From: Eukaryota sp. TZLM1-RC
Lineage: Eukaryota > Protista > Metamonada: BaSk clade
DNA length: 64,000 nt
Assembly (NCBI GenBank): GCA_040285825.1
Contig: JAUPSS010000009.1
Location: 434,001 to 498,000 of the forward strand
Direction: 5' to 3'
The notes below the pieces were generated by a model, which saw nothing but the letters and a program-made list of their open reading frames with translations, ran no database searches and was not told the DNA's origin. Position 1 is the first letter of the stretch. Each line of letters opens with the position of its first letter. Of this stretch, positions 3,213 to 44,977 are shown one piece after another. The position numbers and the translations under genes were made by a program.

Positions 3213-3612
3213 TCACAATTCCACTTTCTTCTTTATTTGAATATTTTTAGCAGGGGAAATATCTCTGTCATATACTATTTGACACTCAGTACAAATACGC
3301 ATCCGCCATGGGCCTGCTTGAGTATTCTCGGCCATGCAACAACTGGACACTTTGCTTGTATTAAATTCACTGGTTGACAAGTGTTTCACGTCCTTTTGAT
3401 AACACAACCATTTTCTGAAAGCCTTTGCTGATGCATATTGACTGACTTTTCGGCAATGAGAAGGGAAATAAGCAGAACCCACAGCAAGGTAGAGTTTTTC
3501 AGGATGTCCAGCCAGCCTTTGAAATTTGTTCAGACTCTCTCGGAACCGTCTCTCTTTTCGTCTGCGGTTTTCAAATTTAATTATTTTCCATTTTTGGCGA
3601 TTACTTTCCAAG
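3213..3612 (-). pseudogene. Fanzor1 (TnpB-like) C-terminal segment: RuvC-II, Zn finger, RuvC-III
   Basis: LAVGSAYF, SEFNTSKVSSCC, RICTECQIVYDRDISPAKNI motifs; joins in frame to the 10797 segment when LTR element 1 is removed. Confidence 0.88.
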
Positions 3613-3691
3613 TGTTGCCTAAAGTCTATTGTAGTAAAGAAAAGTCTGATTTATTTTCTATTCATATTATATAAGCCTTAGGGCGCCAACA
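3613..3691 (-). repeat. 3' LTR of element 1 (79 bp)
   Basis: Identical to 10718-10796; preceded on the minus strand by PPT AAAAAGGGAAGAAGCAG (3692-3708). Confidence 0.95.
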
Positions 3692-3813
3692 CTGCTTCTT
3701 CCCTTTTTCAAAATAAATCAGCTTATATGAATATGAAATAAAAACTATATACAATTAACAAAACAACTATAATAAATACATATAATCGATATAATATAAA
3801 TAATCGATATAAA

Positions 3814-6800
3814 CTAAGAATTAGCTCCTCTTCCTAATTCTATAACTGCGTCTAGGCCTCTTAGAAGGCGTAGACTCATTGGAGGTACTTTGTCGTCGAC
3901 TAGTGGTACGTTTTCCAATTTTCTTGTTATCCTTACTAAATAACTTATAAGCTTCTGAATGTTTAACCGAATGGAGTGGCTCTTCTGTTGTCTCACCGCC
4001 AAACCACTGAACAGTACAGAAACTACCTGAATCAGAGTGGTATTCTGAGAGGATTTTTCTCTATAACGTGTTTTTCGGAATCGCCTGCAGCGACTGCCTT
4101 GAGGAATTCAATGTCCTGTGGATTTTTCTGCGTTATAAATTTTGCAATCTTTCTTGGCAGCTTTTAATTCTGTGCCAGTAGTAAGATTCTTCAATAATAA
4201 AGTGGATTTGGAAGGAAGGTCAATAACTAAAAATGGTCCATTCCAAGATCCATGCAATTTATTATTTTGCTTGGTTTTACGTAAGACGTAGTCACCAATA
4301 TTAAATACTATAAAACACGAATTAGTATTATCTACTGAAGACGGAGTATTTAATGTTTGGTGACGCTCTGCTTCTTCCCTTTTTTTCTTGTAGACGAGTG
4401 TTTTTCATTTTGATGTCATCTAATAAAGGGATATTAGTTTCAAATTTGGATAAATTTCCTAATATATTAGCAGGGTCTGTTCTTGGACTAATCGAAGAAC
4501 CGAACATGAGTTCGTATGGGGTAAAACCAGTTTTTCTGCTTTTTAGTAGAATTTATTAATAGTTGGGATATAGGTACGTATGTAGACCAATTTCCGTAAT
4601 CATTGAAATCTATTAATAGTTTCCTTAAGCATTGAAGAACGTCTCTATGTTTACGTTCTACAAGTCCATTACTTTCTGAATAGTGGGGAATTGAGTTACT
4701 CATCTCAATCGCTAATCTGTTACACACTATTTTGAAAGTCTCATTGGCGAACTCAGGTCCATTATCACTATGAATTAACATAGGTATGCCAAAGATAGCG
4801 CAAACATTCCAAATCAAGGCATCTGCGGTTTCTAAGGCATTGAGTTCTTTTAGAGGGACTAAAATTGTATATCCAGTAAAAGAGTCTACAAATACTAATA
4901 GATATTTATTTCCTTCGTTGTCAGAATTTAGGGGTCCAATTGTATCGACATTTAATCTGGCAAAAGGACGATCTGCCCATAAAGATCCTGTGGAAGGTGT
5001 TTTTGATCTTTTAACTGGAGCCGTTTTTTTGACAAGTTGGGCATCTTTTGACATGATTAATAAGGTCCTTTCTCATATTGGGCCAGTAGAAATCACTTTT
5101 GGACAGTTTGTGTAAACTATCGTTTTTGCTGGGGTGACCAGATTGAACCAAACCATGTATTAATAATAGTGCCTGTTTTCTGAGGCTCTTTGGAATCAAA
5201 ATTTTGTTTTTATTATTTTTCCAAATTTGAGTGTTTACATCTAGAATTGCGTTATCAAATAAAGAGTCGTTGTTGTTTTTGGCTATTTGTTGTTCAGATC
5301 TTATCTTAGACAGCCAAGAAGAAAAAATAGGTAGGTCTTGGTGTCTACTTAGAGATGAGATTGAAGGGATGTCTTCAAGATCCGAATCAGAATCATCGTC
5401 TAGTGGAGGTATCTCGTAATTTGAAAGTAAAGTGTCTGGTATATTTATACTACAAATAGAAGGAGTTTCCTCGTTTTGATCCAAATCAATATTCCTCGAT
5501 AACATATCTGCCCAATGGTTGTCTTCACCAGGTTCGTGGACTATGTCAAAGTCGAATTCAGATAGTATCGGCAGCCATCTCTTTACAATTCTATTTTTCT
5601 CTGGGGCTGTAGCCAGGAATGCAATGTTTTTTATGATCTGTGAAAATTGTTAAATGTCTAGTTAACAAGTAGCTTTCTAAACAACTTTCAGTTAAAAATC
5701 AGAAGTATTGCGTATAATTCTGTTTGTAAGGTGGACCATTTTCTTTGTGTTTCTGTAAGTAATCTACTATAGAATGACAAAGGTTTCACTTTCCTTTTTA
5801 TTTAGCGGGGTTCCTGCAGGGGAGTAGGGTTCAATTTCTTGCCAAATAACACCTCCTACTGCTACATCTGAAGCGTCAGTACTTATCAATACTCGCTTGC
5901 CCGGAGCTGGTAATTCAAGGGGCATGTGGTTTACTATTAGGTCTTTTTATTTGTATTAAGTAATCGTCATGCTTGCAAGTCCATTTAATTATTCTGGGTT
6001 TTCCTTTAATTAGCTCGTTAATTGGAGCAATTAATTCAGAAATACCTGGAAGCCAATCTCTAATATAATTGATGGATCCTACCAATGAGCGAACTTCTTT
6101 CACTGTTTTTGGTCTAGGGATTCTCATCAAGGCTTCGATTTTTTTCTTACTTATAAATCTAGTTTTTATCCTGGAAGGTACTTCCTAAAATGTCGATAGG
6201 GTGTATTGATGTTACGAATTTACATTTACGTAAGCCTATATTTACACGTCTATTTCTGGCGCATTGGAGGACTCTTTGTAATCTCTTATAGAAATCTTCG
6301 AAAGTCGTTCCAACTATTATGATATCATCAATATATATAAAAACGCCATCAATTTGGAATATTTCCATCATTACATTTTTGGAAAACTGCTGGGATGTTC
6401 TTTAATCCGAAGCAAGCTCTTTTAAACATAATTGATCTTCCAGGGATTGAGATTGATGTTTTCTCAATATCCTTCTCAGCAACATTCATCTGCCAGAAAG
6501 CTTTTTGGTAAATCAAGCGTGGCGATGTAATTTGCTCTACTCAAAAATTCTAATATATCACTAATCCTAGGTAGATTAGGCTCTACTGAAATCGTATGGG
6601 CATTAACTCCATCTTTACCACTAAAGTCTCCAGTTAACCTGGGTTTTTGCCGTCAGGGTATATAACTAAGACAATAGGAGAGCTGAATTTATAATTAGAT
6701 TCAACTGCATAGCCCATTTCGATCAGTTCATCAAATATTTTGTTTGCTATTTCCATTTTGCTGGGATTTAACCGTCTAGCAGGTTTATGTACTATAGCAT

Positions 6801-7090
6801 TCTCATCTCTAAAGGGGATTGTTAGAGGATTACAATCGATTCCTTTTCTATTAGGAGTTTCACTAAAAACATCGCTGAATAATTTTAGTAGACTCGTTAA
6901 TTTTAATTTATTATTACTATCATCTAAATTTATCTCACATCCAGATCTTGCTAATTGCTCCTCAAAATCAGAAGGACTTGGTGATTGGTTATCTAAGTTC
7001 CCAATCGAATGTTGAGCGATCCTAGAGTCGAATTCTGATTCTGCATTTAGCAAAGTGCGGTGTTCTTTGTCTAATCTAATGAAAAGACCA
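3814..7090 (-). pseudogene. pol of element 1 (RT, RNase H, integrase, chromodomain), frameshifted
   Basis: ORF pieces contain FSSPIVLV, GVFIYIDD, RSLVGSINY, HGLVQSGH..CPTCQK, VDTIGPL, HSDNGPEF, SNGLVER. Confidence 0.92.
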
Positions 7091-10000
7091 TCATCCGTCT
7101 GAAGCCCAAGTGCTTTTTAACATGTCTGTCCCTATTAATAATTTGTTCGAACCCGGGATTATGGGAAGAGTATGTTTATAGTGAACTTGTTGCGCAATGC
7201 TTCCTACGTTGAACGACAGAATACCAGTTGCACTCCCTAGCGATTTTGTGGATACGTTATTAGCTGGTAAGAACTTAATAGTATCCTTGCTATTGATTGA
7301 CATATGGCATTGTTCAGCTAAATCTGCAGTAATAACTGAACAAAACGCAGCCGAATCTATAGTCGCAATCATTTTAATATCATTTATTGATATCTCCAGT
7401 CTTAGAAATGGAGAACGCTGGGACCTGACGTGGTTTTCACTAACCGTAGAATTAATATCAAAAATGCTATTGATATCAGAGCTGGTTTGGTGAATTTGTA
7501 GAGGAATTAAAAGATTTTGTTGAGCTGTTGGAAAGTTGTTGACTGGGTTTCCTAAATCGGTTGTTGATTGGTTGTGATTGATTGCGTTGATATGTACCCG
7601 ATTAGGAAAGTTGCCTGTCCTGCTGTTCCGGTTGCTGTTGTTGATCCGTCTGTGAGGAACCGTACTCGAACGGGTCGGTTTTGACTCAGTAGGGGATGCG
7701 TTTGATGATATGTCCTCTGTTGTGTTTATGTTATGTATAGGTCTGTACTGACCTCTTCCTTTATGACCTCTATAACGGCCTCCACGGCCTCTAAATTTGA
7801 ATCTATGTACACGTCTACCACGGCCACCTCGGCCCCTTTCTACACTGCCTCTACTAGCAGGCGCCTCCTGTTCTCCTAATCTGAATCTTTCTTCTTTGGG
7901 AACTCTGCTTCTAGCACAACGAGGATCTTTGCATTCGAATACAGTGTGGCCAACAGAATTGTTACCTTCGACGTTGCTGCAGAATGTACAGAATTTTGAC
8001 CCTTCTCGTTCATGCTTTTCAGGGATGTATTTGTGTTGAGGGGTTCCTCTTGACTTTCCACCTGATCGTCTTGCTCGTTTTGTTGGAGCCTGGGCTGATG
8101 GTGTTACTCCTCTTGAGTAAGTTCTCATTGCCGTGAGTCCCAAAGGAATATCTTCTTCGTTAGCCCTGTTCCTTAGTACATCCATTGTGGGCTTGTTTCC
8201 TGCTGTGTAACACCAAGCGAGGAAATGTCTTCTCGTTGTCGATATCAAATCGAGTAGAGTTGTTCTGTTCGGTGAGTCCCACAAGGATTCCCTAGTCCAT
8301 ACTGGGAGGAGTTCGCTTGATATAGCAAAGTTATCCAGACCCATAAGGAAGTACTCGGCTATTAGAGCGGGAGATATGGTTATCAACCCACTGCTTCCTC
8401 TAATTAAATCGGGGATGGTTAGGTCGGTCATGTAGGTGGTCATTCTCAAGACGTCTCCAAAATCTTCTACATAACGACCAAACTCGTTGTCAGCCTCATG
8501 CCTATTGTGGATTTTCCTCCAATTTATTCTAGGCTTCATTAGAGCTGTACAAGCCTCATGATATGATGTGAATTGCGTTCTTTTTAACAGAAATACCATG
8601 ACGTCGGCGTCGGTATAATCAACACCGAGTAAACCTTGACTCTGCCATCTAGATAGAAGGCTAGGGTCGATCATGCTGGATATTCCTGTGGGGCAAGTGC
8701 TCATCATCATGCTCCTAAATAAATCATAATGGTGGATTGGGGGTCCGAGCTTATCTGTTATAGCTGGATCAATCCTTACCAAAGGCTGTGTTGTATCCCT
8801 GGTGATCTCGTCGCGTATATGTTTGGGGAGATCTTTAATCCTATCTTGGGTTATTTCTGCTTGGCCTTCTCCAAATAGCTGGGTAGCTATCATAAAGGCT
8901 CTGGTCCAATCTGATTGACCTGGGGCTTCGAAGCTTCTATTAACTATCTTTCGCCCGTATTTATCCCAAGTTTGAAATTTTAAAAGAAAAGCTATGATAG
9001 ACATTTTGTTAATAGGGTCATCAGCGGATAATCGAGGTCTTTTATAGTCGATATCCTTAGACCGTGGATTAATCTGTCTATGAAGGCTACTAGCTATGCT
9101 CATGTCAATAGCTCTTCTTGAGGATTGTAGGTCCTCAATACGCATAGGTCTATCGGAAGAAGAGTCTCTTACTGAGGGTTGAGGAGGGGCCGTTTCTCCA
9201 ACGACTGGCCCGTTCAACTCAATGTCTTCTCCAATTTCACTTTCCATGGGTTGAGAGAAAGTTGGTTCTTCCTGAGGTGCAACGTCTTGTCTTGTTACAG
9301 GTTCCGGGACGTTCACTGTTGGAACATGATCGGGTATGCTGTCGATAGAGCAGACCTGTATTGGTTGGCTTTTTTCAGAAATTATAGGGGCTACAACAGG
9401 CAGTTTGGGAAGGTGGAGAGATGTGGATGGATCTCCCGTTACCCATTGTCTAAACTCTCGTTGTTTTGTGAACGAGTTACCATGTTGTTGGGTGTAGTTG
9501 TTAGGACGGCTCCTATACGTGGATACAGCTGATCGTTCCGTATGAATGTTATTTAGAGCGTCTGCATCAAACCAGGGGGTTACTGGTTCAAGCTTGTCTT
9601 GTTCACTACTATCCTCCTGCTCCATAAATTCCCTAAAATATGTGGGAGCACCCTCTGTCAGCTCCGTGTAATTATGGATTTCCGTATCAAAGTTAGGATC
9701 AAACCAGGCAGGCAATTTGGATTGTAGGATGTCTTCCGAGTCGGTCCTACTTCTCTGTTCGATGGAGAGAAACCTTATTCTCCTGCCGTATTGATCTAGG
9801 AAGGAGGCCTTCCAATCCAATCTATCTTTGATGGGAAGAGACATCAATTCATTGATTCTCTTGTCCATTCCAGAGATTCTGGGGCGGCGTTCTGCGTTAC
9901 GCCCGAATGTCTCTCTACTCAATTTATCGAGTGCCTTTATGAGTTCATTCCTTTCATTGAGGGGAATTTCCAATACCTTTTGGGTATCCCCAATCATTCC

Positions 10001-10640
10001 GAGGGTCTGAAAACCAACGTTTCTGCCTCTTTTTTTGAACGTAACTCCATAAAGGGGGAAGTTGCTCGAACAGACAGAAATCTGTTGGTTCGAGGTAAGC
10101 CTCCGCGTCCTCTCTTAATAACTTGTAGAACCCCTCAGAAGAGTCGTCTTCTCCCTCCATTTCATCTAGTTGAGATTGAATTTCTTCATATTCTCCTAAT
10201 GGGGAAGACGTGTCTAAGGTGGGATCTCCATCCGTTCCCTTTGAGACAGGTTCTAGAATTGGGAGGGGAGAGGGAGCCAGGTCCGTTCTCGTTGCCTCTT
10301 CCATTGCTTTGAGGGGAGAGGGAGCCGGGTCCGTTCTCGTAACCTCATCTGTTTCTTTTTTCCTGAGGGGAGAGGGAACCGGGTCCGTTCTCGTTGCCTC
10401 TTCTGTTTCTTTTTTTCTGAGGGGAGAGGGAGCCGGGTCCGTTCTCGTTACCTCTTCTGTTGTTGAAGATGGAGGGACCTCGTCCACTCTTTCATCTTCT
10501 TCTACATTAAGGGAGGGGGAGGTGGGATCCGGGTCCGTTGCCTCGTTGCCCTCTATATCATGTGTATGTGACGCTGGTACCTGCTGCATATTAAGTGGTG
10601 GATTAGAGTCAGAGATATCTGGTTGGGAGATGTCTGACAT
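7091..10640 (-). CDS. gag-protease of element 1 (frameshift near 9990)
   Basis: 228-aa plus 968-aa ORFs; CTFC..GH..C..C knuckle, RGG-rich tract, aspartic protease ATIDSAA..LLIGTD. Confidence 0.85.
10265..10462 (-). repeat. Four coding tandem repeats (48/54/54-bp period) encoding EE(A/V)TRTDPAPSPL
   Basis: ggggagag anchors at 10265, 10313, 10367, 10421. Confidence 0.9.
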
Positions 10641-10717
10641 GCTGTAAAGTGTCTGAAGATGTTCACTAATGCTGAAGTTATGGTATACCTTTTGACTTTA
10701 AAATGGCCAATAATTAT

Positions 10718-10796
10718 TGTTGCCTAAAGTCTATTGTAGTAAAGAAAAGTCTGATTTATTTTCTATTCATATTATATAAGCCTTAGGGCGCCAACA
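10718..10796 (-). repeat. 5' LTR of element 1 (79 bp)
   Basis: Identical to 3613-3691; contains TATATAA and AATAAA on the sense strand. Confidence 0.95.
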
Positions 10797-12162
10797 CAAG
10801 TACACTTTTCTCCTGACCAAATTCCAATGGTTCAAATATTGGTTGAAATTTTGAACGGAATATTGGTTGGGAGAGTGTTTACTGGGTGAAAGTTGTGTCA
10901 TGTATCTTCTGCCAGTTCGACAGGGGATAACTCGACATTGATTATCAATTAAGAAGAAACCGCATAATCTGGATTGGCCCAGATCAACGCCAATAAGGGG
11001 CCTTTCAGGTAAATATTCGATTGGATGTCTACGTCTTCGATGGGGAATTGTTATAGTGTCTTTCAACTGTGTTTCTCTGGTTTTGTTGGCATCGGAGTCA
11101 CTTTTCATTTCTTTTTTCAATCTTCGTTTCTTTTTCGGTGGTTCATCCAGCTCATTTGTGCTTTCTGAGTCATTATTTTTACCTTCAAAGGTCAAAAGCA
11201 GTTCATTACCATTAGTTTTCATTAAATTTTTTTAAATCTATTTTTCAAACTTTTTCTGTTGTTATTAAATTTTTGGTAAGAGCATTGTTTGAATATTGGT
11301 TTTACACATGTATTTTTGATAAACTTTGTTTTGGAAGATGATCCTTCAATAAGTGGAAATTTTTTCACAGAATGGAAAACATGTGAAGGAACTTCAAGAA
11401 ATTTAGAACCTTTATGAGAAGCTACAGGTATTATTCTAAATTTCTTCCAGCAATGCATATGAGAAAAGTAAGTGAGTAAGTATTGAGAAATTTTAATATT
11501 AAAGAGAAAAGGCTCACCAATTTCCTTCGATGAAAAGGTGATTTTATCATGTGAAGACAGTAGAGAGGCAGTGGCAGGAAATCTTTGAAGGAGATTCAAG
11601 ATAAACTTACATACATTTAATAAAAAGAATCTTTCTGTTGAATTATTCAGATTGAAATTGATGTAGTGTTCGAGAATAGAAAGAATAACTACTGCGGATT
11701 GCTCATCTTCTGTTATTGCATTAGCTTCTAGAGGTGCCAAGGGTTTATCTGGTTTAAGAGGGAAAAGATAATTGGCAAAGACATTCATCTTATCCAGGGC
11801 TCTACAATGAGCACGAATGAAGTTTCTTGTCCAGGATTGACAAATTTCAGATAAAATTGTCTTAACATTGGATGCCAATTGACAAGCCCGACAAGCAAAA
11901 TAAGGAGGAACTCTTTTTCTATCAATAAAATTACATCTCTGTTACTGCAGCCAAGCATTGAGGAAAATATTGATTAAATTTCTATAAGGAACTAAAGAAT
12001 TTTCCCATGAAAAAACAAGAGACCTGTCTTGTGGGCATTCAGGAAATAATCCACTGTAAAAGATATGGAATAATTGCGTTGGCCTTCAGATGTGGAAGGC
12101 TTTGGAAAAGAACCAGTGCTGATGACGGTCATAACAAGATACCATATATCTTGCTCCATTAA
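10797..12162 (-). pseudogene. Fanzor1 middle segment including RuvC-I
   Basis: LIGVDLGQSRL (RuvC-I), FRIIPV, NFNQYLNHW; frameshifts near 11222 and ~12000 and one in-frame TAA; bounded by the two LTR-element TSDs. Confidence 0.85.
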
Positions 12163-12307
12163 TGATGGTCTACGCTGGTTAGTGTCAGACATACAGAGTA
12201 AAAGTAATGAGATTTATTATAAAGAGGAATTGCATTCTCTCTTCTTAAATTAATAGGCGGAATACTAATAAACTATCTAAAACTATAAATACTATGCAAG
12301 ACTAACA
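12163..12307 (-). repeat. 3' LTR of element 2
   Basis: Aligns to 18007-18154; PPT immediately adjacent at 12308-12326. Confidence 0.92.
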
Positions 12308-15300
12308 CTGCCTTTTCCTCTCTTTCGAGCGACGAGCTCTGGAAGCTCTAGTCACAGGAGATGAACCATAGGAATTGGTACGCTTCTTGGGAGGAGCGGA
12401 TTTAGTACGGCGACGTGCTTTTGAAGTCTTGATGAAGTCTTTATACGCGGCAGTATTTTGAACTGTAGACACGTGTTCAGTGGTGATCTCTTTTCCAGGC
12501 CATTGCACTTGGCAAAAGTCACCTTCCTGACTGAGCACATTTTCAATGATGTGTTTTTCGACATCACCTGTAGCGACCCAGAAATGGAACTCATCGTTGG
12601 TGGGCAAGCTGGAGTGTCAGGGTGCTAAATGTTTGACGCTAGCTTGGACAATCGTACCGGTGCAGAGATTCTTAATATTCACAGACGAATTGGATACGAT
12701 TTCAGTAATTAGGAAGGGACCTCAATAGTCTCCATGAAGCTTAGCGGAGGAGCTGGAAGCTCGTAATACCAATTGACCAACTTCAAAAGGATTTGGAGAT
12801 GCTGATCTGGTTAGCTTGGAAGCTTTGGAAGCTTGATGGTGTGCTGCCTTTTCCTGTTTTTCTTTCAACCTTCGAAATTTAGATTGAATTTCTTGAATAA
12901 AAGTTGACTCGGACGTCGAGCTTTCAATGATTTCAAGAATTTTGCCAGGGTCTGATTTAGGAGACACATCTGAGCCAAAGATCACTTGGTATGGAGTGTG
13001 GTTAGTTATTGAGCTCTTAAAAGAGTTGATCAATAATTGCACATAAGGCAAGTATTCAGACCACACATCGTAGGCGTTGAAGTCTACGAGCAATTTCCGT
13101 AGGTTTTGCAGGATGTCTCTGTGTCGGCGCTCTACCAGGCCGTTGGACTGAGAAAACCTAGGTATTGACTTTGACACCTCTATGCCCAAGAATTTGCTTA
13201 GTTCGTCAAAGACAGCTTTGGAAAATTCGGGTCCATTATCGCTGTGGATTTGAAATGGAATGCCAAAGATGGCACAGACTTTATAATTTAATGCATCTGC
13301 AGTAAGATTGACATTTATCTTTTTTAAAGGCACGATGATCGTGAATCTAGAAAAGCTGTCAATAAATACGAGGATGTATTTATAGCCTTCTTTATCTTCT
13401 GGAAGAGGACCAATAATGTCGGCGTTTACGCGAGCAAAAGGTCTGTCAGCCCACAATGAACCGGTTGGGGGAACATGCAGTTTGGAAACTGGCTTAGTTT
13501 TCTGACAGGAGGGGCAATCTTGGACGTGCTTATTCTTGTCGGTGAGCATGTTAGGCCACCAATAGTCGCTGTTTCTGAGCTTGTCCAGGCTTTCAGCTTT
13601 GCTTGGATGGCCTCCTTGCAGAAGTCCGTGCAACAAGTTAAGGGTGTCCTTAATGAGTGATTTGGAAATCACTATCTTGTTGTCGTGAGTCATATATAAA
13701 TCAAGATTGTTGTTATGAACACAGTTGTTGAAAGAGGGGTCTTTGGAAGCTATGGCAAGCTTCTGTTCGGACCTAATCCTACAGAGCCATGGCTCGACAA
13801 TAGGTAGGTCGTTGGAACATCGTTCTCTGATGACCATGATACGTTCAAAGTTGTTTAAATCTTCTATGTAGTATCTTTCGTTTTCTGTTCCATCTATTTT
13901 ATCAATGTAAAATATTGGATCAAAATTTGGAGATATTTGATGGGACAAATGATTGATCTCTTGATGGTCTATAGGCGGAACTATTTGAGACAACATATCA
14001 GCCCAGAAGTTATCTTCCCCTTTGGTATGTACCAAATCAAAGTAGAATTCGGAGAATATGGGTAACCATCTGGTTACAATTCTGCTCTTCTCAGGAGTTG
14101 TGAACATGTAGGTAAGGTTTTGATGGTCTGTGAATATGACCAGTTTTCTTCCTTTCAAGTAGTTTTCGAAACCACTTTGAGTCAACATGAGTAAGATAGC
14201 ATAGAGTTCCTTTTGGTTTGTCGGCCAGTTCTTTTGCGAGTTGGTTAACAACCGGTTGAAGAAACTGATGGACCTACATTTCCTGTTGATCAGGGGGGTA
14301 CCGGGGTCGTCGACTTGTTCAATTTGTTCCCATATGACGCCGCCTACAGCTATGTTGGATGCATCGCAACTAATTAAAATTTGGCTTTCCAGGGGAGGTA
14401 AGCTGAGCGGCATGTGGTTCGCTATCAGTTGTTTGAACTTTCGGAGGAGTCCGTCGTGCATGTCGGTCCATTGAAGGCGTTGCGCGCGGGGTTTGGGTTT
14501 AACATTGGAGTTGTTTCTTAGTCAATCTGATGATAGGAGCGATGAGCTCAGATACCTGAGGAAGCCATTCTCTAATGAAGTTGACTGATCCTACGAGGCT
14601 GCGGACATCTTTGATGGTCTTTGGTCTAGGTAGATTCAACAAAGATTCAACGCGAGTGGGATCAATAGTCCGTTGTTTGTTTTGGAAAACACTGCCCAGT
14701 ATCTTGATGGGTGTCTGGAAGACATGAAATGGCACTTTGGAAGTCCCAAGGAAACTCTTTTGCATCTGGCTTGATCAAGGACGCGACGGAGGCGTTCAAT
14801 GAATTCGTCAAAGGTTGAACCTATGATTATGATGTCATCTATGTAAATGAAGACACCGTCTCCAGAGAAGATGTCAGCCATGACGTTTTGGAAAACGGCT
14901 GGGACATTCTTGAGGCCAAAGGCTGCGCGTTTGAACATGATACTTTTGCCAGTCCGTTTCAGCAATCTTGAGTTGCCGAAAGGCTTTGGGGAGGTCAGGG
15001 GTGCCTATGTAGTTCGCTTGGGAAAGAAATACCAGCACATCGGAGATCTTTGGAAGGTTGGGCTAAACAGGAATGGTGTTGGCGTTGACTCCGTCCTTGC
15101 CACTATAATCACCGGTAAGGCGGGGCTTACGGTGATCTGGGTAGACCACTAGACAGACAGGGGAGCTGAACTCATGGTTCGATGGAACAGCAAATCCTGA
15201 GTCTACGAGTTCGTCGAAAATTTGATTAGAATCTAGCCTGGCTAGATTCAGGGTTCTGGGGAGTCTTCTAACTCTGACGTCTTCATTGTAGAAGTTGATT

Positions 15301-18036
15301 TCCATGGGAGGGCAATCAATACCTTCAACGTGAGGCTTGAGGGTAAATACGTCTTCGAACTCTTTCAAAGTTTGAAGTAGGGACTTCTTGAAATGGTCGT
15401 TGTCGAGGTTGATGGTACAACCAGATGAGTTGATGTGTTGCAACCAACGTGTGGAAACGTTGACGACTTCTGAAGCTTGTGATATTCGATGATCGAATTC
15501 GGCTTCAGGTAATAGTGATGTGCGACAGGCGTCGTCCATTCTAATGTTAATGCCCTTGTTGTTCATCAGTCCAAGGTGACTCAACAAGTGAGCACCTATG
15601 AGAATGGTCTCATGTCCAGGAACGATGCTGAACTTGTGTTTCACATGTACAATCTGGGTAACACTACCTAGTCTAATGCTAAGGTTTCCAGAAGCAGTAC
15701 CAAGGGACTGTGAGGTGGTTCCATCAGCAATCGTGTAGGATATGGTTTCGTTGGAACGTGCCATGTTGCAATTAATGATGACATCTTCCGTAACTACTGA
15801 GCATGTTGTGCCAGAGTCGATTATGCCTTTAACTTCGACATTGTTGATCGAGAAGTTTAATTGTAGGCAGTTGGGTGTGGATTTTATGGATTGTACCATG
15901 AATATTGTATCAGAATCGTATTCAGCTTGTTCTGAGAAGAAATTAGCTTGAATGTTGTGTGTCTTGGTATGTTCCAAGTTGGCCAAAGGATTGATTAGGG
16001 AATCTTTCCATGTTGTGCTTTCTGTGTGGGGATGTGTTGTAGTTGTAGGGGGTATGGTTTCAAAAATGCGTAAATAGTGACGATAACGTTTATTGTATGA
16101 TGAAGAGCCTCTGCCTCTGCCGCGAGTGCCACTTCGACTACGGAAACCAGAATTTCTAGAACCTCTGCCTCGAGCTTGCTGTTGAGCTTGTTGCTCTCTC
16201 CACTTTTTGCTTCTTTGGCAGTCCTCACTAGGGCACCTTTCAGTCGGATGACCCATTTGTTAACAGAAATTGCATTGGACGTTGGACTTAGACTGAGTGG
16301 AAGACGGTTGAGTAGAGATTCCTTCTCGCCGTTGTTGTTTTAGGCGTCTGCCAGAGCTGGAACCTCTTGGTTTGGGGATAGCAGGGGGAGAAGGTACCGT
16401 CTGTCTGCGACGGTTCTCGGTCTGAAATGAGATTCTGTTCTGATACAAGAAGTCAACGTGATTGACCTCCTCCTTGAAAGATCTAGCATTACAGAAATTT
16501 TCGTATTCTATTTGGAGAACACTGAAAAATTCTCCTAGGGTGTGACCATTTGAGTAGTAATGGGAGGGATTGGACCAGATCCTGAGGAGTCTGTCCCTGA
16601 TGATGGTAATGCCGATGCTTTCGATGACGTGATGATCGGTATTCTATATATCCAGGGAAAACAGCGACGAGATGTAAAGCTCTTTGAAGATTACCGGATC
16701 TTCTGTGGTCGGGACCGCAGTATGATGCTATATGATCTGGACGTCTATTATACAGAAAGAGTCTTTCTCCGTATGTGGTTTCAGTGAACCCCCACCCTGT
16801 TCTGTAGTCTCTATCGATAAGGATATCTAGAAATGCGTTGTACCCAGGGCTGAACCTAGGGTAGGGGCAAGGGTTGTAGGCGTTGATAAAAAGGTTGTCT
16901 TCGTCTCCAGCGAAGCGTCTGAATACTCCCTCTCGTGTGGTTCTCATGAACCTAACTCCGGGTCTAGGGTCGTGAGTGGGTTCAGGATCATGTCTCGTGT
17001 TCGCTGGAGTAATTCTTTCATCGGAGAGGTATGGACCAATCCTTGGAGTGATCCATAATCCTAAGTCATTTTCGACTCTAGGACCGAAGAAAGGAGGACG
17101 CCCATTGCTCATCTTCGTGGGAGGGATGGCTTCGGGGTCTTCTGGAATTACTTGAGAATCCCTATATCGGGCATAAGGATTGTGCTAACGGGAAGCACCG
17201 TGATCATGAACGCTAGAACTAGCGTGGAAGCTAGGGTCGAGAGGTGTCTGTTCAGTAGAGCTGAATCTACTTGGAGCCTGAATCGCCCAATCAAGTCTTC
17301 TTCTGAGTTCCCCCATCCGTTGTTCACGGCAATGTTGAAAATCATCTCCAGTTCTAGACTCCTGGGGAGGAGCAGAAGATTGAGTTGTTGAAAATTCCGT
17401 AGCAGGTTCTACATAATCAATCAGATCTGAGAAGATCTGCTCATATCTCTTTCTTTGTTCTTCAGACAGATATGAAGGAAAATTCAGGGTGCTATGAGCG
17501 GGATCAATAGCATGAGGTGGGGAAACCGTCAGATTGTCAACTCCGCTTACTGTGGTTGAAGTAAGGGGAGATCCTGAAGCTGGAACAGCAGGATTTTGAC
17601 TTACTCTCTTTACAGTTGAAACTGAAGGAGGTTGATTGGAGGATGGAACCTCAGACTCAGGTCTAGGAGATGAAGTTGGGACTTCAGAGCTTCTCTGAGG
17701 GAGGGGAGAAGATGAGACTTCTGATACCCTGAGTGAAGAAGAAGAGGGAGGAGCTTCGGAATCCTCAGCATCTTCGTCGTCATAGGAGACCAACGAAGAG
17801 CTTCTTCCTTCCGAAGGAATAGAATCCTCTGGAAGGGAACTGTCTTCCTTTGGGATAGAACCTTCAGGGAGAGTGGCTTCAGAAAGCGCAGAAGCTTCTA
17901 CTGAAGAAGGGGGCACGGGAGCTGGGTCTGTGGTTAGTGGTGAGGAAGAGGGATCAGTCTCTTCCTCGTGGATCCTGCGTTGAGCCGTTGACGACCCAAT
18001 ACGTATTGATGGTCTAGGCTGGTTGGTGTCAGACAT
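12302..18036 (-). pseudogene. gag-pol of element 2, multiple frameshifts and stops
   Basis: Ser/Pro-rich N-terminus, CNFC..GH..C knuckle, protease, RT, RNase H, integrase (579-aa ORF), chromodomain-like HIIENVLS..QVQWPG..TEH. Confidence 0.9.
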
Positions 18037-18154
18037 ACAGAGTAAAGATAATGAGATTTATTACGAAGAGGAATTGCATTCTCTCTTCTTAAACTAATAG
18101 GCGGAATAATAGTGAACTATCTAAATGAACTATAAATACTATTCAAGACTAACA
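18007..18154 (-). repeat. 5' LTR of element 2 (contains gag ATG at 18036)
   Basis: Direct repeat of 12163-12307. Confidence 0.92.
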
Positions 18155-18338: not shown

Positions 18339-18985
18339 GTAGTGAGAATAAACAGCTCATCTATCAATTTTACACTTGTCACCCCATTTTCGACTTGTGC
18401 TTGCCTGTTCTGGGAGGTTTTTAACCCTCAACTTGGTTTTGGGAGGTTTTCACTTTTCTCTCACTCGTAAACTAGGTTTTGGTTATCTCGCAACGGAACC
18501 TTGAATATACCTCTTTGCGCCAAAAGTGTTTCTCTTTCAATACTCTCTTTTAGTTTGGTCTATTGTTTTGTTTTTATGTATTGTCTTTTTCTCATTCATT
18601 CTTATTTCCCTCACTTACCTTTTTTTCCAAGTTTTAGTACTCCCCATGTACTCTTTTTATGTGTTTTTCTGCTCATCTTTGACTCTTTTTTTACCTTATA
18701 CCCGCAGTTGATTTCCTTTTTTAAACATTTGATGTACTCGTCCTAAAACCCTCCTCTCTCATCATCGTAAATGATGTTGTCCTCCATCATAATTATTTGA
18801 ATAATAAATATAAATGTGTATGTGTAATGTAGGACAGAGTTGTTTATTAACTTTTAAGTCACTATTATTTTGGGAACAATTCAATTTTTAACAAAACAAA
18901 CTAGTTTTGTATCGTAGTTGAAGTTGTACGGTAGTTGTAGTTTTTAAATACAGAATGCTTTTCGTCAAATAAATAAACCTATTTT

Positions 18986-20499
18986 TTGATTGATTTACTG
19001 AAATGTATTTTACTTTCGAATTGTCCAGTTTTTACAATAGTTGATGGTATTGAAATTCAAGCCAAATTATCTTCAATTGGTGCTATTCGTCATTTGGGTT
19101 CGTTTTTAGGAAGTAATGATGAACTTACCAAAGAATTGTTTGAAAAGTTGAAATCAATTTCCGAAAAAATTGACCGAATGATGACTTTAGATATACAAAA
19201 ACATATCAAATTTACCATTATAAGACTGTGTTTTAGTTCCAACTTTAATCATATATTTCGATCTACAAATCCTCTCGTCACTACACCTTTGGCCCAGAAG
19301 TTTTATGAATTACTTGCAAAAATTTTGTCACAATTACTGGGATGTAAAATGTTCCAAATTCCAGATCATGCTTCTCTTAGTTTACAATATGGCAGTTTAG
19401 GTTGGACAAAGGCTTCTATTCTTACTTCATGTGCTTTTATTGGTGGATGCAGAAATGCAATATTTGAGTTTTCTAAAAGATTTGCCGATTGGGAAGATTT
19501 AATAATGGCAACACAAGGTTCCACTGTTTTTGCATTAAATGATGAAATTTCAAAAATTGATGTGGAAAAATGGAGTCGATGCTTTCCCCAATCATTCAAT
19601 TGCAATATTTCAGAAAAGAATTTTTTATATTTAAAATACAGTCTTCGAACATTACAGAAACGATTGACTGGAATTTATGAAAATGATTTTTATAATAATA
19701 TATGCAGCTCGGCTGTTTTAAATCAAGATCTTCACTCTTTGTTATTGGAAAAGGGTGTTTGTAACCATTGTACCACGAAGATTTGGACTGTGTGCTACTA
19801 ATGAAGCATTTGTGAAAAATGAGATTATATTTGAATTTCCCCAATAATCAATTATTATTAAAAGAAGAATGTATTTGTTCGAATTCACCTCAGCTCACTC
19901 TGCGACATGCTCTGAATTGTTCGAAATTGATGACTTGTCGTTCTTCATTACATGATGCTGTTAGAGACACTGTTTTTAATATGGCACAAACTACAAGAAT
20001 TTCGTGTATCAAAGAACCTCTTCTGAAGGAAACATTGTCATTGAACAATTTTGGTTCTGATGATAGAGGTGATGTATACTGTGATTGGATTGATAACTCT
20101 GAAGCTGTTGTTGACTTTGTCTCATGTTATGTTGCAAATGACACTTTGGTTCACAAAAGAAAACTTAATCCTGTATGTGCTTTTGAATTTAAAGGAAAAG
20201 AAAAACATAGAAAATATGACAAAGATATCGAAGAGGCTAATGCTGGAAGAAATACACCACTAGTTTTTATTGCTTTTCCATTTTCGATAAACGGAAGACT
20301 ATCAGTAGAAACTTTTTTGAATGACTTCCAAAAAATGGTTCAAGAAAAAACAATGAAAAGATTTGATATTTTTTTATGGCGCTCTCGGATTCAATTTGCC
20401 ATTATTAATAGATTACCTCGGTTTTTCAATCGAATTAGAGAAGTTTTAGCTAGACAGCAAGCAGATCAAGATTTTGTAGATGAAATCTTGGTTCAATGA
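18986..20499 (+). mobile_element. 5'-truncated non-LTR retrotransposon (CRE/SLACS-like): RT thumb, Zn knuckle, restriction-like endonuclease
   Basis: RHLGSFLG, IRLCFSSNFNHIFR, QYGSLG, CIC..HALNC..HDAVRD, EP, RGD..VDF, KHRKY. Confidence 0.82.
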
Positions 20500-20805
20500 T
20501 TTTCGTCCCATTAGTTATGAATTAATTTTATTAAATGAGCATGTTCAATAAATATGATTGATTTAACTTGAGTAAATGGATTAGCTTAATCACTATGCTG
20601 TTGTGCATTACACAGTTGAAATTCAGTTGAAATCTCATAAGGGAGGCAGTATAGGTTGATGAAGAGAGGGAGTTGACAGAAAAATTCACGATTGGAGCAA
20701 CAGAAATTGAAAGAATTAGAACAGGGGGATATTCAACCAAACAGACCACCACAGTAAGTTAGAAAATTGAAATTTCTCAGTCATCAACATTGCATCCCCC
20801 AATTG

Positions 20806-27989: not shown

Positions 27990-28689
27990 AATTTGTTTTT
28001 GTTGGTTTTTTTGGTTTTTTTGCGTTTGAACAAAATAAATATTCTATTTGACATTTTTAACCCTTGGAAACATTGCTTGAGGTAGTAGCTTGAGATTCCC
28101 CAATGAAACCCCAAAATTTCAAATAAATTCCCATATCGCTTTCCTTTATCTATTAATTTCTTAAGTTTCTGTTCTTTATTTCTCTATAACGTTGCAAGTG
28201 TTCAGTTTTGGTAATTGAGTTTAGGGTAGGACCAGCTGCTGAGCAACTACAACATTCATGTTTAATATGAACGAGTACCCTGTACTAACTTCGTCACAAT
28301 CAGCACCACAACGAATTTCCTCCTGTATTCAACTGAATGTAAGATATAATTCACTGAAACAAATTATAAACTTGAATCTTTAGAAAATTTAGAGAAATTT
28401 TATCAAGATAGATAGCAAAATCCTAGGAAATACTCACTTGTTCTCAGATCAATGGTTATATTTTCTGTCTGCCTTGTTAGTTTTTTGCACTTCAGTTGTT
28501 CAAAAGAGTGTTCTCTTCAGTAGTGATTCTATTCTAGAGAAGTTGAGAGTACCAAAAATGTTGATTTGCATAACATAACCAATGCTACACCAGGAATCAA
28601 CATGGTGTTGTTGAATTCTCAGTGTCAAATAGTACTGAGTGGTTTAACTGAACTTTTATTGATCTTGCACACTTAATAATATTTATTCA

Positions 28690-29530
28690 TAACTAATGGG
28701 ACGAATATCATTGAACCAAGATTTCCTCTACAAAATATTGATCTGCTTGCTGTATAGCTAAAGCTTCTCTACCTTGATTGAAAAACCGAGGTAATCTATT
28801 AATAAGTGCAAATTGAATCCGAGAGCGTCATAAAAAAATATAAAATCTTTTCATTGTGTTTTCTTGAACCATTTTTTTGGAAATCATTCAAAAAAGTTAC
28901 TGCTTCTACTGATAGTCTTTCGTTTATCAAAAATGGGAAAGCTATGAAAACTAGTTGTGTATTTCTACCAGCATTAGCTTCGATATCTTTGTCATATACT
29001 CTATATTTTTCTTTTGCTTTAAAATCAAGAGCATCTACAGGATTAAGATTTCTTCTTCTGGTTTTTGAACCAAAGTGTCATATGCAACATTTCATTTCAA
29101 ATTAATTTCATTTTTTAAGTGTCATTTCAGGAGACAAAGTCAGCAACAGCTTCAGAGTTCTCAATCCAATCACAGTATGCATCACATCTATCATCAGAAC
29201 CAAAATTATTCAATGACAGTGTTTCTTTCAGCAGAGGCTAACGATAAGTTATCAATTTCAAACAATTCAGAGCATGTCGCAAAGTGAGCTGTGGTGAATT
29301 CGAACAAATACATTTTTCTTTTGATAATAATTGATCAATGGGGATATTCAAATAAAATCTCATTTTTGTTACAAAAGCTTCATTAGGTGCACACAATCCA
29401 AATCATCGTGGTACAATGGTTGCAAACAGTGAAGAATATGATGACTGGTTTTCAAAAACACCCTTTTCCAATGACAATGAGTGAAGATCTTGATTTAAAA
29501 AAGCCGATCTGCATATATTATAACTGAGTG
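28690..29530 (-). mobile_element. Degenerate non-LTR retrotransposon 3' fragment (same family as 18986-20499)
   Basis: Reverse-complement similarity to 19700-20520 (e.g. tagattacctcggtttttcaatc, aatcttggttcaatga). Confidence 0.8.
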
Positions 29531-29921: not shown

Positions 29922-31910
29922 ATGCCCAAACTGTTTGTTAACAGAGTTCTATCTCCCTACTATCAGGGTACTGAGAACGTTCAGTCAACACTGGACAGGC
30001 TGCAAACAATATTCCTTGTGTTGCTGCCGATCTACGACATTCTTGTTCGTCTTTTTGACTGTCCAACAATCCAAAAGTGTTTCGACCAATAGGAATCTTG
30101 GTGTGAAATCAGTATCAAGTTCCTACCACAACCTTCTCCTCACCTTTTCTGGCGAGGTTTATGGTTGGGGGTGCAATGATAGGGGTCGAGTTCCGATCAA
30201 CGGACCTGAAACAATTCAAGTACCAAGTAGGTTACTTTTAACTAATATGTTTCCATTTCAGTTGGTGAATATCACTCCCTTGCACTCTCTTCTGATTGTA
30301 CATTATTTGGTTGGGACTGGCTCTACTAAGATTTCTTTTTTCTGTGCTCACGGAGATTCGGATCTTGTAGTAAAAGAGAAGAAGAAAGTTGGTCCAAATT
30401 TGGATTTATTAACTTTGATTAGTATTCTGGTGAAGGCCTGTTTCTCACAGGCAGGATTCCTGTCAATTGTTACATAAGGCCTAGAAATTCTCTGAATTCT
30501 CCTTTTTTACTCGATTTTGAGTTCCTATATGTTATTGATGCTAATGATGAAATCTGGAGGTTTGACAAGGGGCACGATGATGTTCCTTTCAATAACAAAC
30601 CCACCAAATGTTTAGGGTTGAGTAGTATTGTTTCTGTTAGTGGTTTTGATGGTATTTATGTTGCCATTGGCAAAAAGGGTAAAGTTTTTGTTTGGGGTGA
30701 TTTGAGTAGAATGAGTGATGTTTATGAAGATAGTGAAGAAACCAAGATGTATCGAAGCTTCTACTAATATAGAAGTTATTTCAGTTGGTTTTGATTATCT
30801 TTACGCTTACAACAAAAACTCTGTTTGGGCTTGGGGAAAGAATGATCAAGGTCAATTAGGTACAGGTGATTTGATTGATCGACATGAACCTGTTTAAGTA
30901 CTTGGATCTGAAATACTTGGCAGTGTCCAGTATCCCCAACAACCTTTGGATAGATTGTTCAGTGGTCTTATTAAGCTTGTTTATTGAGAATATTTAAATT
31001 ATTTGAAAGATTTATTTGGAAATCATCCGTATGTCAAAGCCAGATTTATCAGCAAATGCTTAATTAGCAATAGATTGGTTAATCTAGGTGAAACAGTGCT
31101 CAATAATTATTCTATTCGAGATTTGGTGTTTTTAAACCAATCTATTTGTGATTTACAATTGCGATTAACCACTGACTACAATGGTCCCAGAGTAATTAAT
31201 ATTAGAATTAAAAAACTTGATGTTTTCCATGATGAAGTTGATTATGATCCACAATTATTGTCGTTTTTCCCAAATGTTGAGGTTGTTAAGCTTGGTGGAT
31301 TTCTATCTCTCGAAAATCACCTAAATTTGGCACATTTGTCAAAGCTCAATTATCTAGAGCTTACTTTTCCTTTCAATATAGTGTTGGCGCCCTAAGGCTT
31401 ATATAATATGAATAGACAATAAATCAGACTTCTCTTTACTACAATAGACTTTAGGCAACAATAGAACAATTACCCACTTCACTAGTGAAGTTAGTACTTT
31501 ATTTATTTTTGTTTGTACAATACACTTATACTGAATTAAGCTATCCTACCTCGCTAAAAGAGTTAGTGATATTTGATAATGATGTTTCAGAACGAATAGT
31601 AAAAGGTCAAATTTCTTTACCTCAATTCATTGTCAGACTATATTTACTACTAGAAGATCTTGTTAATATTGAAATTAAAGTACCAAATTTGAAGGAATTG
31701 GTAATTCATGGTATGGTTCCTACCAATATCACTGAACAAAATTTTCCTTCATTGAAGTTCATTCAATTGATTAGACCAGAAGGGGTGAAGTTGTCAAAAA
31801 ATTTTAATGAAGATTAATTAAAATTTGTGAAATCAATCAAGAATGGTTACTTATATGAATTATCTTGTTTTCCATGGTTGGTAGAGTGTTCATTAAAACC
31901 CATTTAGATG
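29922..31910 (+). pseudogene. RCC1-repeat plus leucine-rich-repeat-like gene, degraded, with a solo LTR insertion
   Basis: GEVYGWGCND.G, VFVWG, VWAWGKNDQGQLGTGD; LPTSLVKL-type repeats; multiple stops and frameshifts. Confidence 0.75.
31382..31460 (+). mobile_element. Solo LTR of the element 1 family, TSD ATAG
   Basis: 79 bp, 2 mismatches to 3613-3691 (inverted); ATAG at 31378-31381 and 31461-31464. Confidence 0.95.
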
Positions 31911-33921: not shown

Positions 33922-34633
33922 AAAAATTAAACAATAGTGAAGGAGTAAATGGAATTAAAAACTCATAATCAGTTTAATATAAAATGCGAAACTTTACGGG
34001 CTTTTTCAAGAACTTTTGTACAAAGGTTGTGAATTTAAATACAAAGTTTAGTTTGAAGTTTTATATGAATATGACAAGTCAGGTTACAGTTCTGGACAAA
34101 TTGTTCCTTCTTTTTTTACACCATATATGTTTTCGAAACTTCAACACTTAATGAAATGGAATCAAAACTAATGGGACTGAATTCAATGAAACAAGATTTG
34201 CTCTACCAAATCCTGATCTGCTTATTTTCTCGAAAAGAATAATTTCCCGAAAGATAAAAGATTAAACAATATGAACAATTGTATTGTGGGATTACCTAAC
34301 AAATTGTTATAAATGTATTAAAAAATGATATTTTTGTCGTGATTACTGATTCACAGAATAAAAAAACAAGGTCTTGTTCTTTTTGTTATGATTTTAATCA
34401 AATTGAAATGTATTGCATCAGTGACAGAATTCTGTTATTATTTCATTTTATATGAGTTATATGCTGATGACATTTAATGCGCCACTTGGGTCAAATCATT
34501 GAAGACGAACCAATGAAGAATATTGTTGAGAAATCGACATTATTTACGATATGGAGGATAAAAATAGATTTGACAATCATCTACATTCAAAAAACGCTGA
34601 TACTACCACTTGACATTGTTCTGCTTCTAACAT

Positions 34634-42390: not shown

Positions 42391-43330
42391 TCACTCATAT
42401 TCTACACTTATAGCTAAAACAGATTTAGAAATCATTGTTGGAATAGACTTGAAAATGCAAAAAACAATTCTAACCAGAAAGAGGAATATTTCTTTATGAG
42501 ATCTAATTTGCAAAACTGTCTTAAAATTTTCAAAAAAACAGTGCAATCCTGATGGACCATTATTGTCAGAAGGAGAAGTAGCATTCGGCACAAACTGATA
42601 ATTCACATGTTCGACTCTACCTGAAAATGCCAATGGTTCTTCATATTTTTTCATTTTACTTTTTTCGGAGTTAGATAGTGGCAATTTTTTTTAATAGCAG
42701 CAGAATTTTTGCAGACATCGATTGAGAGAATATCGACAAGGTTGAGAACACCATCGAGCGCTGGAGCAACTAAATCTGCCCTTCTTTCACCAAAAGGATC
42801 GTCAGTTTGATTCGGAGATAGCTTACGTACTAACGGTTCAATAAAAGCCTCAATATTGAAACTTTTACGCATAGCATACAATTGATCACGAACTGAATCA
42901 TGAACATTTGAGCGATAGGTAATAAAATATTTGCAGTTTAAAATATCTGAAAGTGTAACCACATTCTTACAGCGACAAATTAAATCATTTGGTAACGAGC
43001 AAGGCCATAAGAAACATCTCACTCTCATAGCTGTAATCCATTGGTGATCATTGAGTAGAAGCTGTAAATGTTGGCAATTTCGGAGATTAGGCAACTTTGA
43101 GCAACTGTCTTCAAGATCAATCAAAAAGTTTGCAAAAACGGGATTTTTTTCTTTAGCCAAGCTAAGACGTACAATATAATCCAAGTTTTCTAAGATTATT
43201 TTCTGCAATTTTGCAAAAGTCAGTGGTAAGGAGAGCAAGCTTCTTGAAGGAAGTTCCACAATAGAGGAAAAACATTGCTCAATATCCTGTTGCAAAGAAA
43301 TAAGAAACATTTCAAAAATTGGTGCAGAAA
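42391..43330 (-). mobile_element. Non-LTR retrotransposon 3' fragment (Zn knuckle plus REL)
   Basis: CRC..ILNC..HDSVRD, EP, RRADLV, VDILSID. Confidence 0.85.
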
Positions 43331-43429
43331 AATAGAATCGATGTTATGCTCAATCATCCAATGTCAAAATCCTGAACAAAATTAGTTGAGAAATAATTTA
43401 TGCTTCGAACATTAAAAAAACGAATGACC

Positions 43430-44340
43430 AAAATGTTTGAGATATAAAAGTAAAAAATGATAAAAAAAATGTATGAAGATGATTCTTTTGAAAATTTATG
43501 CAACCCGGCTGTTTTAGATCAAGATCTCTATTCATTACTATCCGAAAAAGATGTATGCGAGAACAAGTCAGCAGATTCACTACTACTCACAATTGTGTCG
43601 TAAAGGTTGGGCTATCAGAATTTTCACTGTTTGTGACCAATGTACCACGAAGATTTGAAATTTGTGCTTATAATAATCCTTTTGTAGCAAAAATGAGATT
43701 TTATCTGAATATCCCTATTGACGAACTTCTATTAAATGAAACATGTGTTTGTTCTAATTCTTTGCAGTTCACTTTACGTTATGCGTTTAATTGCCCCAAA
43801 TTGACAACTTATCGTTCCTCAATACATGAAGCTGTCAAGGACACTGTGTTTAATATGGCAAGAAATGCAAGATTACCGTGTATTAAGGAGTCGTTGCTTA
43901 GAGAAATACTGTCATTTAACTCTGAAGCTGTTGTTGATTTTGTCTCCTGTAAGGTTGCAAGTGACACTTTTGTTCAAAGAAAGAACCTTAATCCTGTAAA
44001 TGCTCTTGAAAATAAAGCGAATGAAAAACATAGAAAATATGACAAGGATATCAAAGAAGCTCATGCTGATAGAAACAAACCATTTATTTTTATGTTTTGC
44101 CATTTTCTAAAACCGAAGACTATCAGTAGAAGCAGGAACTTTTTTGAATGATTTCCAAAAAATAGTTCAAGAAAAAACAATGAAAAGAATTGGTATCTTC
44201 TGGTGGCGGTCGCTTATTCAATTTGCTATAATTAATAGATTACCTCTTTTTTTACAAATAGATAGAAGCAATAGCAAGAGAACAAATAGATCAGGATTTT
44301 GTAGAAGAAATCTTGGCTCTATGAAGTTGGACCTATGAGT
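43430..44340 (+). mobile_element. Non-LTR retrotransposon 3' fragment (family of 18986-20499)
   Basis: MRFYLNIP..CVCSN..HEAVKD..KHRKYDKDI, close paralogue of 19819-20499. Confidence 0.85.
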
Positions 44341-44977
44341 TATAATTTCATTTTAGTAAGTTTTGTAGATCAATAAAATAAAACTATCTATCAATGAAGG
44401 ATTTTAATGAAATGTTGATTGAAGTTCACTATTCCATGGTCGTCGATCTATCAGTTCCCCCACTATCCCACTACTCCAACCGCCGTAGCAGAGGCAAATG
44501 TGCTCGAGTGTTTTGGTAAAGGGATATTTCTCCATAGAGAAGTCAGTGGAAGATTGAAAGTGTACTTTTTTAACCCAATATTTTAAGCATTCAGAAGACC
44601 TCAGAAAAAGTCTCCAAATCCTACCTGTTTTGATTTGAGTCAACAAAAATTTGATTGTTGAAGTTAGGACTGTGAATGGGGTTGAATTATTGGAAATTGA
44701 CTTCAACATTTTAGAGAAGGTTTGCATTTCTAGTGAATTCTTTTTTAGATCCATTGAGATGTCGTAGCAATGTTAACCCTATTTGTTACCTTCGACAGGG
44801 CTTTGATTCATGCTGTAATTTAATAGAATTAATTTATTCAATCTTTTTTCGATGTTGTGATGGTTAAAAAAGCGACATTATTCCATAAATATAGACCATA
44901 AATGTTGAGAATTTGGGAGATTAGGCAACTTGAGCTACTATCTTCAAGATCAATCAAAAAGTTTGCAAAAAAGGATT

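Follow-up and report, generated by a model that had tools for sequence, protein, structure and literature searches.

A conserved palindrome at the primer position of two metamonad Ty3/gypsy retrotransposons: a possible tRNA-free start of reverse transcription

Two retrotransposons in the window

The stretch of DNA analysed here, which we call the window, comprises 64,000 nucleotides of a contig of Eukaryota sp. TZLM1-RC (JAUPSS010000009.1). It contains two LTR retrotransposons, both on the minus strand. Element 1 occupies positions 3613-10796. Its 5' LTR (10718..10796) is 79 bp long, runs from TG to CA and is identical to the 3' LTR (3613..3691), which a polypurine tract adjoins upstream (about 3692-3708); the target duplication is the 4-bp CTTG. 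The gag-protease region (7091..10640) starts with MSD... 78 nt past the LTR, and reverse transcriptase (RT), RNase H and integrase (3814..7116) are spread over several frames. The gag-protease region has frame breaks in the window copy and is unbroken in relatives of 99% identity. A solo LTR of the same family lies on the plus strand at 31382..31460, with its own 4-bp target duplication. It fixes the end of the LTR independently, giving three different flanks in all. The family is multi-copy, with clusters of 43 and 10 sequences at 99% identity. With its identical 79-bp LTRs and a 43-member protein cluster at that identity, it is young and compact. The LTR (10718-10796) is very short and has a partial internal repeat: GACTTT and CAATA occur at LTR positions 46-65, and again from position 66 across its end.

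Element 2 occupies positions 12163-18154. Its LTRs, of 148 bp (5', 18007..18154) and 145 bp (3', 12163..12307), are about 91% alike, the target duplication is the 4-bp TTAA, and a purine tract adjoins the 3' LTR. In both elements the domains follow the gypsy order of protease, RT, RNase H and integrase. Together with the LTR pair, the 4-bp duplications and the polypurine tract, this identifies them as Ty3/gypsy LTR retrotransposons; the best solved relative of a homologous protein (P0010) is Ty3 Gag-Pol (E 1.8e-62). The two elements share 37% and 62% protein identity in their two main segments and 63-69% DNA identity in their conserved parts, and their LTRs are essentially unalignable save for one weak 23-nt match.

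Among 77 pol homologs, the close ones (about 41-94% identical) all come from Eukaryota sp. TZLM1-RC, GEM-RC1 or TZLM3-RCL, labels that we take to denote cultures of the anaerobic metamonad Skoliomonas. Relatives in metagenome and genome contigs are only 23-36% identical, and none was found in viral contigs. Pfam Chromo has no match in ten family proteins or pieces. A chromodomain-like conserved stretch, unrecognised by Pfam, is present at the integrase C-terminus (12302-12616 and about 3820-4120, minus strand); it aligns at 11% probability only.

A TnpB/Fanzor-like nuclease gene appears to have been interrupted by the insertion of Element 1, its two pieces lying at 3213-3612 and 10797-11941 on the minus strand. 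The downstream piece has a match to Pfam Cas12f1-like_TNB (E 2.8e-6) and a weak one to a Cas12m chain. The upstream piece has no Pfam match and contains an IGVDLG motif, presumably RuvC-I. Another repeat has dispersed copies at 18977-20566, 28654-29521, 34116-34230 and 43097-44378; it has no useful Pfam match, and we take its frames to be the C-terminal part of a non-LTR element. A MULE/Mutator transposase with a SWIM finger lies at 45178-46467 on the minus strand.

A palindrome across the end of the LTR

We number the junction with the last LTR base as 0. At the position of a primer-binding site, Element 1 has a perfect 12-nt palindrome from -1 to +10 (10708..10719, minus strand). An earlier note on this DNA had placed such a palindrome at the terminal CA of the LTR, within a longer bulged stem; this is confirmed, and the sense-strand sequence given there from 10731 to 10694 is an exact match to the minus strand. 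The stem (10694..10731) joins U5 to the leader. Its outer part has 7 bp (-13..-7 with +18..+24, or 10725-10731 with 10694-10700), its middle part 3 bp (-6..-4 with +11..+13), and its bulges are one of 4 nt on the 3' side and one of 2 nt on the 5' side at -3/-2 (10720-10721), with the palindrome at the top.

Element 2 has a perfect 12-nt palindrome in the same register (17997..18008, -1 to +10) and an equivalent bulged stem (17983..18020), which lies inside the gag reading frame. Since its gag start codon is within the LTR (18036 on the minus strand, with the LTR part running 18036-18007), this palindrome is translated. An unpaired 5'-side bulge lies directly ahead of the palindrome in both elements. 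Counting both strands of the window, a perfect 12-nt palindrome starts at 2 of the 8,794 CA sites, and both of these are the 5' LTR ends.

Conservation, covariation and family variants

The junctions of the two elements align without gaps. Among 16 base pairs derived from Element 1, 13 are kept in Element 2, seven unchanged and six by double changes; the three broken pairs are at -9..-7. Where the 5' base of a pair has changed, the pair is compensated in six of eight cases (binomial p 0.004 to 0.02). Shifting the register by 1 to 6 bases leaves at most 6 pairs, and a scan of 127,912 windows reached 13 pairs at one other place only (41983). A pair counter found the covariation equalled in 10 of 500 shuffles, a modest figure as it is based on two DNA sequences only. 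The earlier note would have given up its reading if the stem were not conserved across copies; the stem is held in Element 2 with compensating changes. The central pair of the palindrome, which would be loop in a lone hairpin, is itself altered on both sides, from AT in Element 1 to CG in Element 2.

Could all this be a matter of DNA? The site might be a footprint of copying back from U5, or a palindrome resembling an LTR junction that is meant for integrase, with no role in RNA. The leader from +9 to +24 is indeed a degenerate inverted copy of the U5 end, and the 2-nt gap would prevent a second full integrase end from forming. However, the bulge and the register are common to both elements despite their otherwise unalignable LTRs, and such a signal offers no primer. 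We give this explanation very little credence.

Family variants were sought in contigs from three DNA runs that were compared with each junction; the runs possibly include the window's own sample, so that the variants lend no independent support. Of the 70 sites from 17976 to 18045, 31 have substitutions in Element 2 contigs; the palindrome and bulge, 14 bases together (17997-18010), are free of them. The hypergeometric probability of this is 8e-5, a figure that ignores coding and integrase constraint. Conservation at the Element 2 site can be mimicked by protein constraint because the site is coding. Its peptide, SIRIG, is found in 7 of the 11 Gag homologs that extend to this segment (out of 13 non-self homologs), and the other four differ by one residue; the residues preceding SIRIG are freely variable. 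The best-covered Element 2 variant, with depths of 30, 15 and 5 across the three runs, has changes at -9, +18 and +19, all unpaired, and a 3-base insertion, and its outer stem stays readable. Contigs of depth 2-7 have single stem pairs broken at 17986, 17995, 17996, 18011, 18017 and 18019 (+21, +12, +11, -4, -10 and -12). One low-depth contig (record 1, depth 2.8) appears to have gained pairs at -8/+15 and -9/+16.

For Element 1, among 40 of 41 substitutions listed, the sole one within 10694-10728 is at 10714, in one contig, and with this change the palindrome centre would admit a G-U pair. A variant of the LTR in this family, itself well covered, differs from -11 outward; its coverage excludes the leader. 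The palindrome site is real and conserved.

A similar site in a separate gypsy clade

The exact site of Element 1, CAATA-NN-TATTG, is absent from all 89 distant loci. Nevertheless, a separate gypsy clade represented in metagenome contigs has palindromes at a comparable place. An LTR-end motif lies upstream of gag at 19 loci of this clade (L005, L006, L007, L010-L014, L017, L019, L020, L024, L027, L028, L034, L036, L040, L043 and L069), and 18 of them carry a perfect 12-mer; here the motif was chosen after the palindromes had been seen, a number of the loci are almost the same in sequence, and L006 is the only one with a proven LTR end. The motif has 38 matches. After 22 of them, which belong to the 18 loci, a perfect 12-mer starts at +1 or +2. 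The others are that of L013, which has a 10-mer, one 3' LTR end, and 14 within reading frames. The 12-mers represent 8 distinct sequences, all with a self-complementary centre, covarying and without TGG. Several of the loci have a predicted 5'-side bulge ahead of the palindrome.

Compared with the window elements, this clade has only 23-29% pol identity, and its palindromes start at +1 or +2 and not at -1. A quick tree places the palindrome-bearing clade as a well-supported group and the relatives of the window elements as a separate, long-branched one; it was built from homologs only, leaving out the window's own two frameshifted copies, and its long stem renders the placement uncertain. Similar palindromes upstream of gag, with other flanks, are present at L022, L056, L062, L064, L067, L068 and L070.

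tRNA and other known primers

Neither element has a canonical primer-binding site, as there is no TGG within a few bases of the 5' LTR. The earlier note's statement that none lies 0-3 nt from the LTR is thus borne out for Element 1, whose first TGG is at +9; that of Element 2 is likewise at +9. There are no tRNA genes within the window, and Rfam has no match between 3000 and 19000.

The common position of this TGG raises the question of whether a host tRNA or half-tRNA might prime there, or within the palindrome, with the stem as a U5-leader helper. Priming by half-tRNAs is known in several copia lineages (PMC6317226). If synthesis started at +9, however, 8 extra bases would be left past the CA. 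Past the TGG the two elements have wholly different sequences, each of which pairs with the U5 of its own element. Because the palindrome centres differ, no single tRNA half could be a perfect fit to both elements. Base 16, counted from the TGG, is moreover C or T and not the G that would face C61 of a tRNA, which is invariant. Priming by a tRNA or half-tRNA is, in our judgement, very unlikely.

Self-priming of the Tf1 type was considered and rejected: the longest upstream LTR complement is 4-6 nt, against about 9-11 nt required. The earlier note had denied any complementary LTR segment outside the palindrome. That holds in so far as there is no Tf1-type self-primer, but it goes too far for Element 1, where two short upstream matches to the leader exist, one of 6 nt to +19..+24 and one of 5 nt to +6..+10, neither adjoining the LTR end. 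The Element 2 LTR has no leader match of at least 5 nt. Applied to a control, the intact gypsy element at L039 (122-592, 593-605), the same test found an 11-nt Tf1-type self-primer match. A split primer drawn from the partial repeat of the Element 1 LTR (46-65) was also rejected, as the start would be at +5 and Element 2 has no counterpart.

Possible priming within an RNA dimer

What, then, might the palindrome do? We consider it nearly an even chance that these elements start reverse transcription without tRNA, from paired RNAs of which one is nicked near the 3' edge of the palindrome and primes on its partner. The palindrome and the stems beside it would hold two co-packaged RNAs together, and one of these would then be nicked near the 3' edge of the palindrome, opposite the conserved 2-nt bulge. 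This step is suggested by analogy with Tf1, whose primer is made by RNase H cutting an RNA duplex (PMC7175516). The nicked end would serve as primer for minus-strand DNA, with the partner RNA as template and the bulge opposite the nick providing unpaired bases for the RT start. A nick after +10 would be opposite the 2-nt bulge and put the DNA start at -2; a nick after +8 would put it exactly at the LTR end.

Two features of the site would make sense under such a scheme. The end of a primer must be base-paired at the LTR boundary, and a palindrome lets the same segment of a second RNA serve for this. The palindrome includes the CA, so that plus-strand synthesis, in copying the RNA primer, would rebuild the terminal CA and with it the LTR end. 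The extended dimer comes out 12 and 16 kcal/mol lower than two separate hairpins in the predictions, although folding programs favour dimers for any palindrome. Counting against the scheme are the stem pairs broken in low-depth Element 2 contigs, the altered palindrome centre of one Element 1 contig, the four Gag homologs that differ from the encoded peptide, and the poor hairpin and ordinary junction stability of Element 2.

The same nick could also be made in a single RNA that folds back on itself. The cut would fall opposite the bulge, where the palindrome ends on the 3' side, and the 3' arm of the hairpin would prime on its own U5. Here too the bulge is at the expected start of synthesis, and the LTR end would be recovered when the CA-containing palindrome is copied. 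For the ancestors of LTR elements and for some chromoviruses, priming by a hairpin has been proposed (PMC3601003). The hairpin of the Element 1 monomer is well predicted: its 42-nt junction folds better than 997 of 1000 shuffles, and its pair probabilities are 0.73-0.99, with the innermost tested pair (+3/+6) at 0. The stability of the whole LTR plus leader is ordinary, 93 of 200 shuffles being equally good. The Element 2 monomer, on the other hand, folds differently. Its junction stability is unremarkable (125 of 1000 shuffles), and in a 161-nt context the hairpin is outcompeted, with a pair probability of about 0.02. After a fold-back nick, moreover, the second strand transfer would lack an overlap, unless it drew on a partner RNA that had stayed uncut. 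Above all, a loop needs no self-complementarity, and symmetry at the centre is nonetheless found in both elements and in all 8 distinct 12-mers of the other clade. It is mainly because of this symmetric centre, needless in a hairpin loop, that we prefer the dimer, and a lone hairpin seems to us unlikely. Among the routes that the earlier note had offered, the intermolecular one fits somewhat better than the lone hairpin.

If dimers form, they need not prime. The palindrome might be a signal for dimerisation or packaging only, the primer being something else, such as a host RNA, a bipartite site or a protein. The energetically favourable dimer speaks for this, and palindromes are described as driving dimers in retroviral dimer initiation sites and in the Ty3 initiation complex (PMC5445492, PMC5371799). 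Skipper elements likewise have no known primer (PMC5006619). Against this reading stands the position of the palindrome, held to the exact base at the end of the LTR, which is where a primer has to work. Dimer initiation palindromes sit in loops and are additional to a primer site (PMC5445492); that of the window elements is the top of a stem at the primer position and not an extra loop. A role as such a signal alone is distinctly unlikely in our view.

Significance

For LTR elements that lack both a tRNA site and a Tf1-type primer, the GalEa and Skipper papers both state that no model fits (PMC5445492, PMC5006619). What is added here is a compensated structure in a fixed register, which makes the mechanism of priming testable. 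Dimer and hairpin predict different primer junctions and different results when RNAs are mixed, so that a direct test is possible. The site also bears on the proposal that hairpin priming preceded tRNA priming (PMC3601003).

Comparison with known systems

The earlier note spoke of a different priming route. This was overstated, as there is a published precedent in the Conserved Hairpin Site of fungal GalEa copia elements (PMC5445492), and the feature is present in other gypsy lineages too. GalEa elements, which have no primer site, possess a 10-nt palindrome taking in the last A of the LTR, so its centre is at +4/+5; 5 of 8 folds show a bulge or loop at the junction with the LTR; and no known priming model fits, in the view of the authors (PMC5445492). 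The window elements share with them the lack of a tRNA site, a palindrome that contains the last base of the LTR and is centred at +4/+5, and a predicted larger hairpin with a bulge at the LTR junction. They differ in being Ty3/gypsy and not Ty1/copia, in having a 12-nt palindrome that takes in the whole CA, and in a palindrome stem that pairs with U5 with compensating changes. A second, downstream repeat (CHSeq2, an inverse-complementary 9-mer) is reported for GalEa, and table MOESM4 includes families without it (PMC5445492). In the window elements the best equivalents are 5/9 in Element 2 and 6/9 plus one G-U in Element 1, which is doubtful, and we do not count CHSeq2 among the shared features.

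In Tf1/sushi elements an upstream LTR segment complements the site (PMC7175516, PMC4600332, bioRxiv 10.1101/2022.12.06.519325). The window elements resemble them in their Ty3/gypsy enzymes, in flanking U5-leader duplexes, in a start that is free of tRNA (proposed here for the window elements) and probably in an RNase H cut of an RNA duplex. Unlike Tf1/sushi, they have no complementary upstream LTR segment and no clear chromodomain, and the Tf1 site is non-palindromic. Skipper of dictyostelids is, like them, a protist Ty3/gypsy element with neither TGG nor a Tf1-type complement, for which the authors find that no priming model fits (PMC5006619). Skipper carries a polypyrimidine tract where the window elements have a palindrome; such a tract after the 5' LTR is absent from the latter.

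The literature that we searched, which left subscription papers and Repbase Reports outside its coverage, describes no such site in a gypsy element. Priming without tRNA, from structures or palindromes adjoining the 5' LTR, has reportedly been proposed for Tca3/Tcd3 of Candida, and self-priming by a palindrome is said to be described for diatom elements in Repbase Reports.

A broader suggestion may be offered tentatively. Reciprocal priming within an RNA dimer, in which one genome is nicked opposite a bulge at the palindrome edge and primes on its partner, could be a third general way for LTR elements to start, next to tRNA and Tf1 priming, one that arose or persisted separately in the present flagellate gypsy lineage, in a second gypsy clade and in fungal copia elements. 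Whatever its mechanism, the site of the window elements works like the GalEa site, and it does so outside the GalEa family and outside the Tf1 group.
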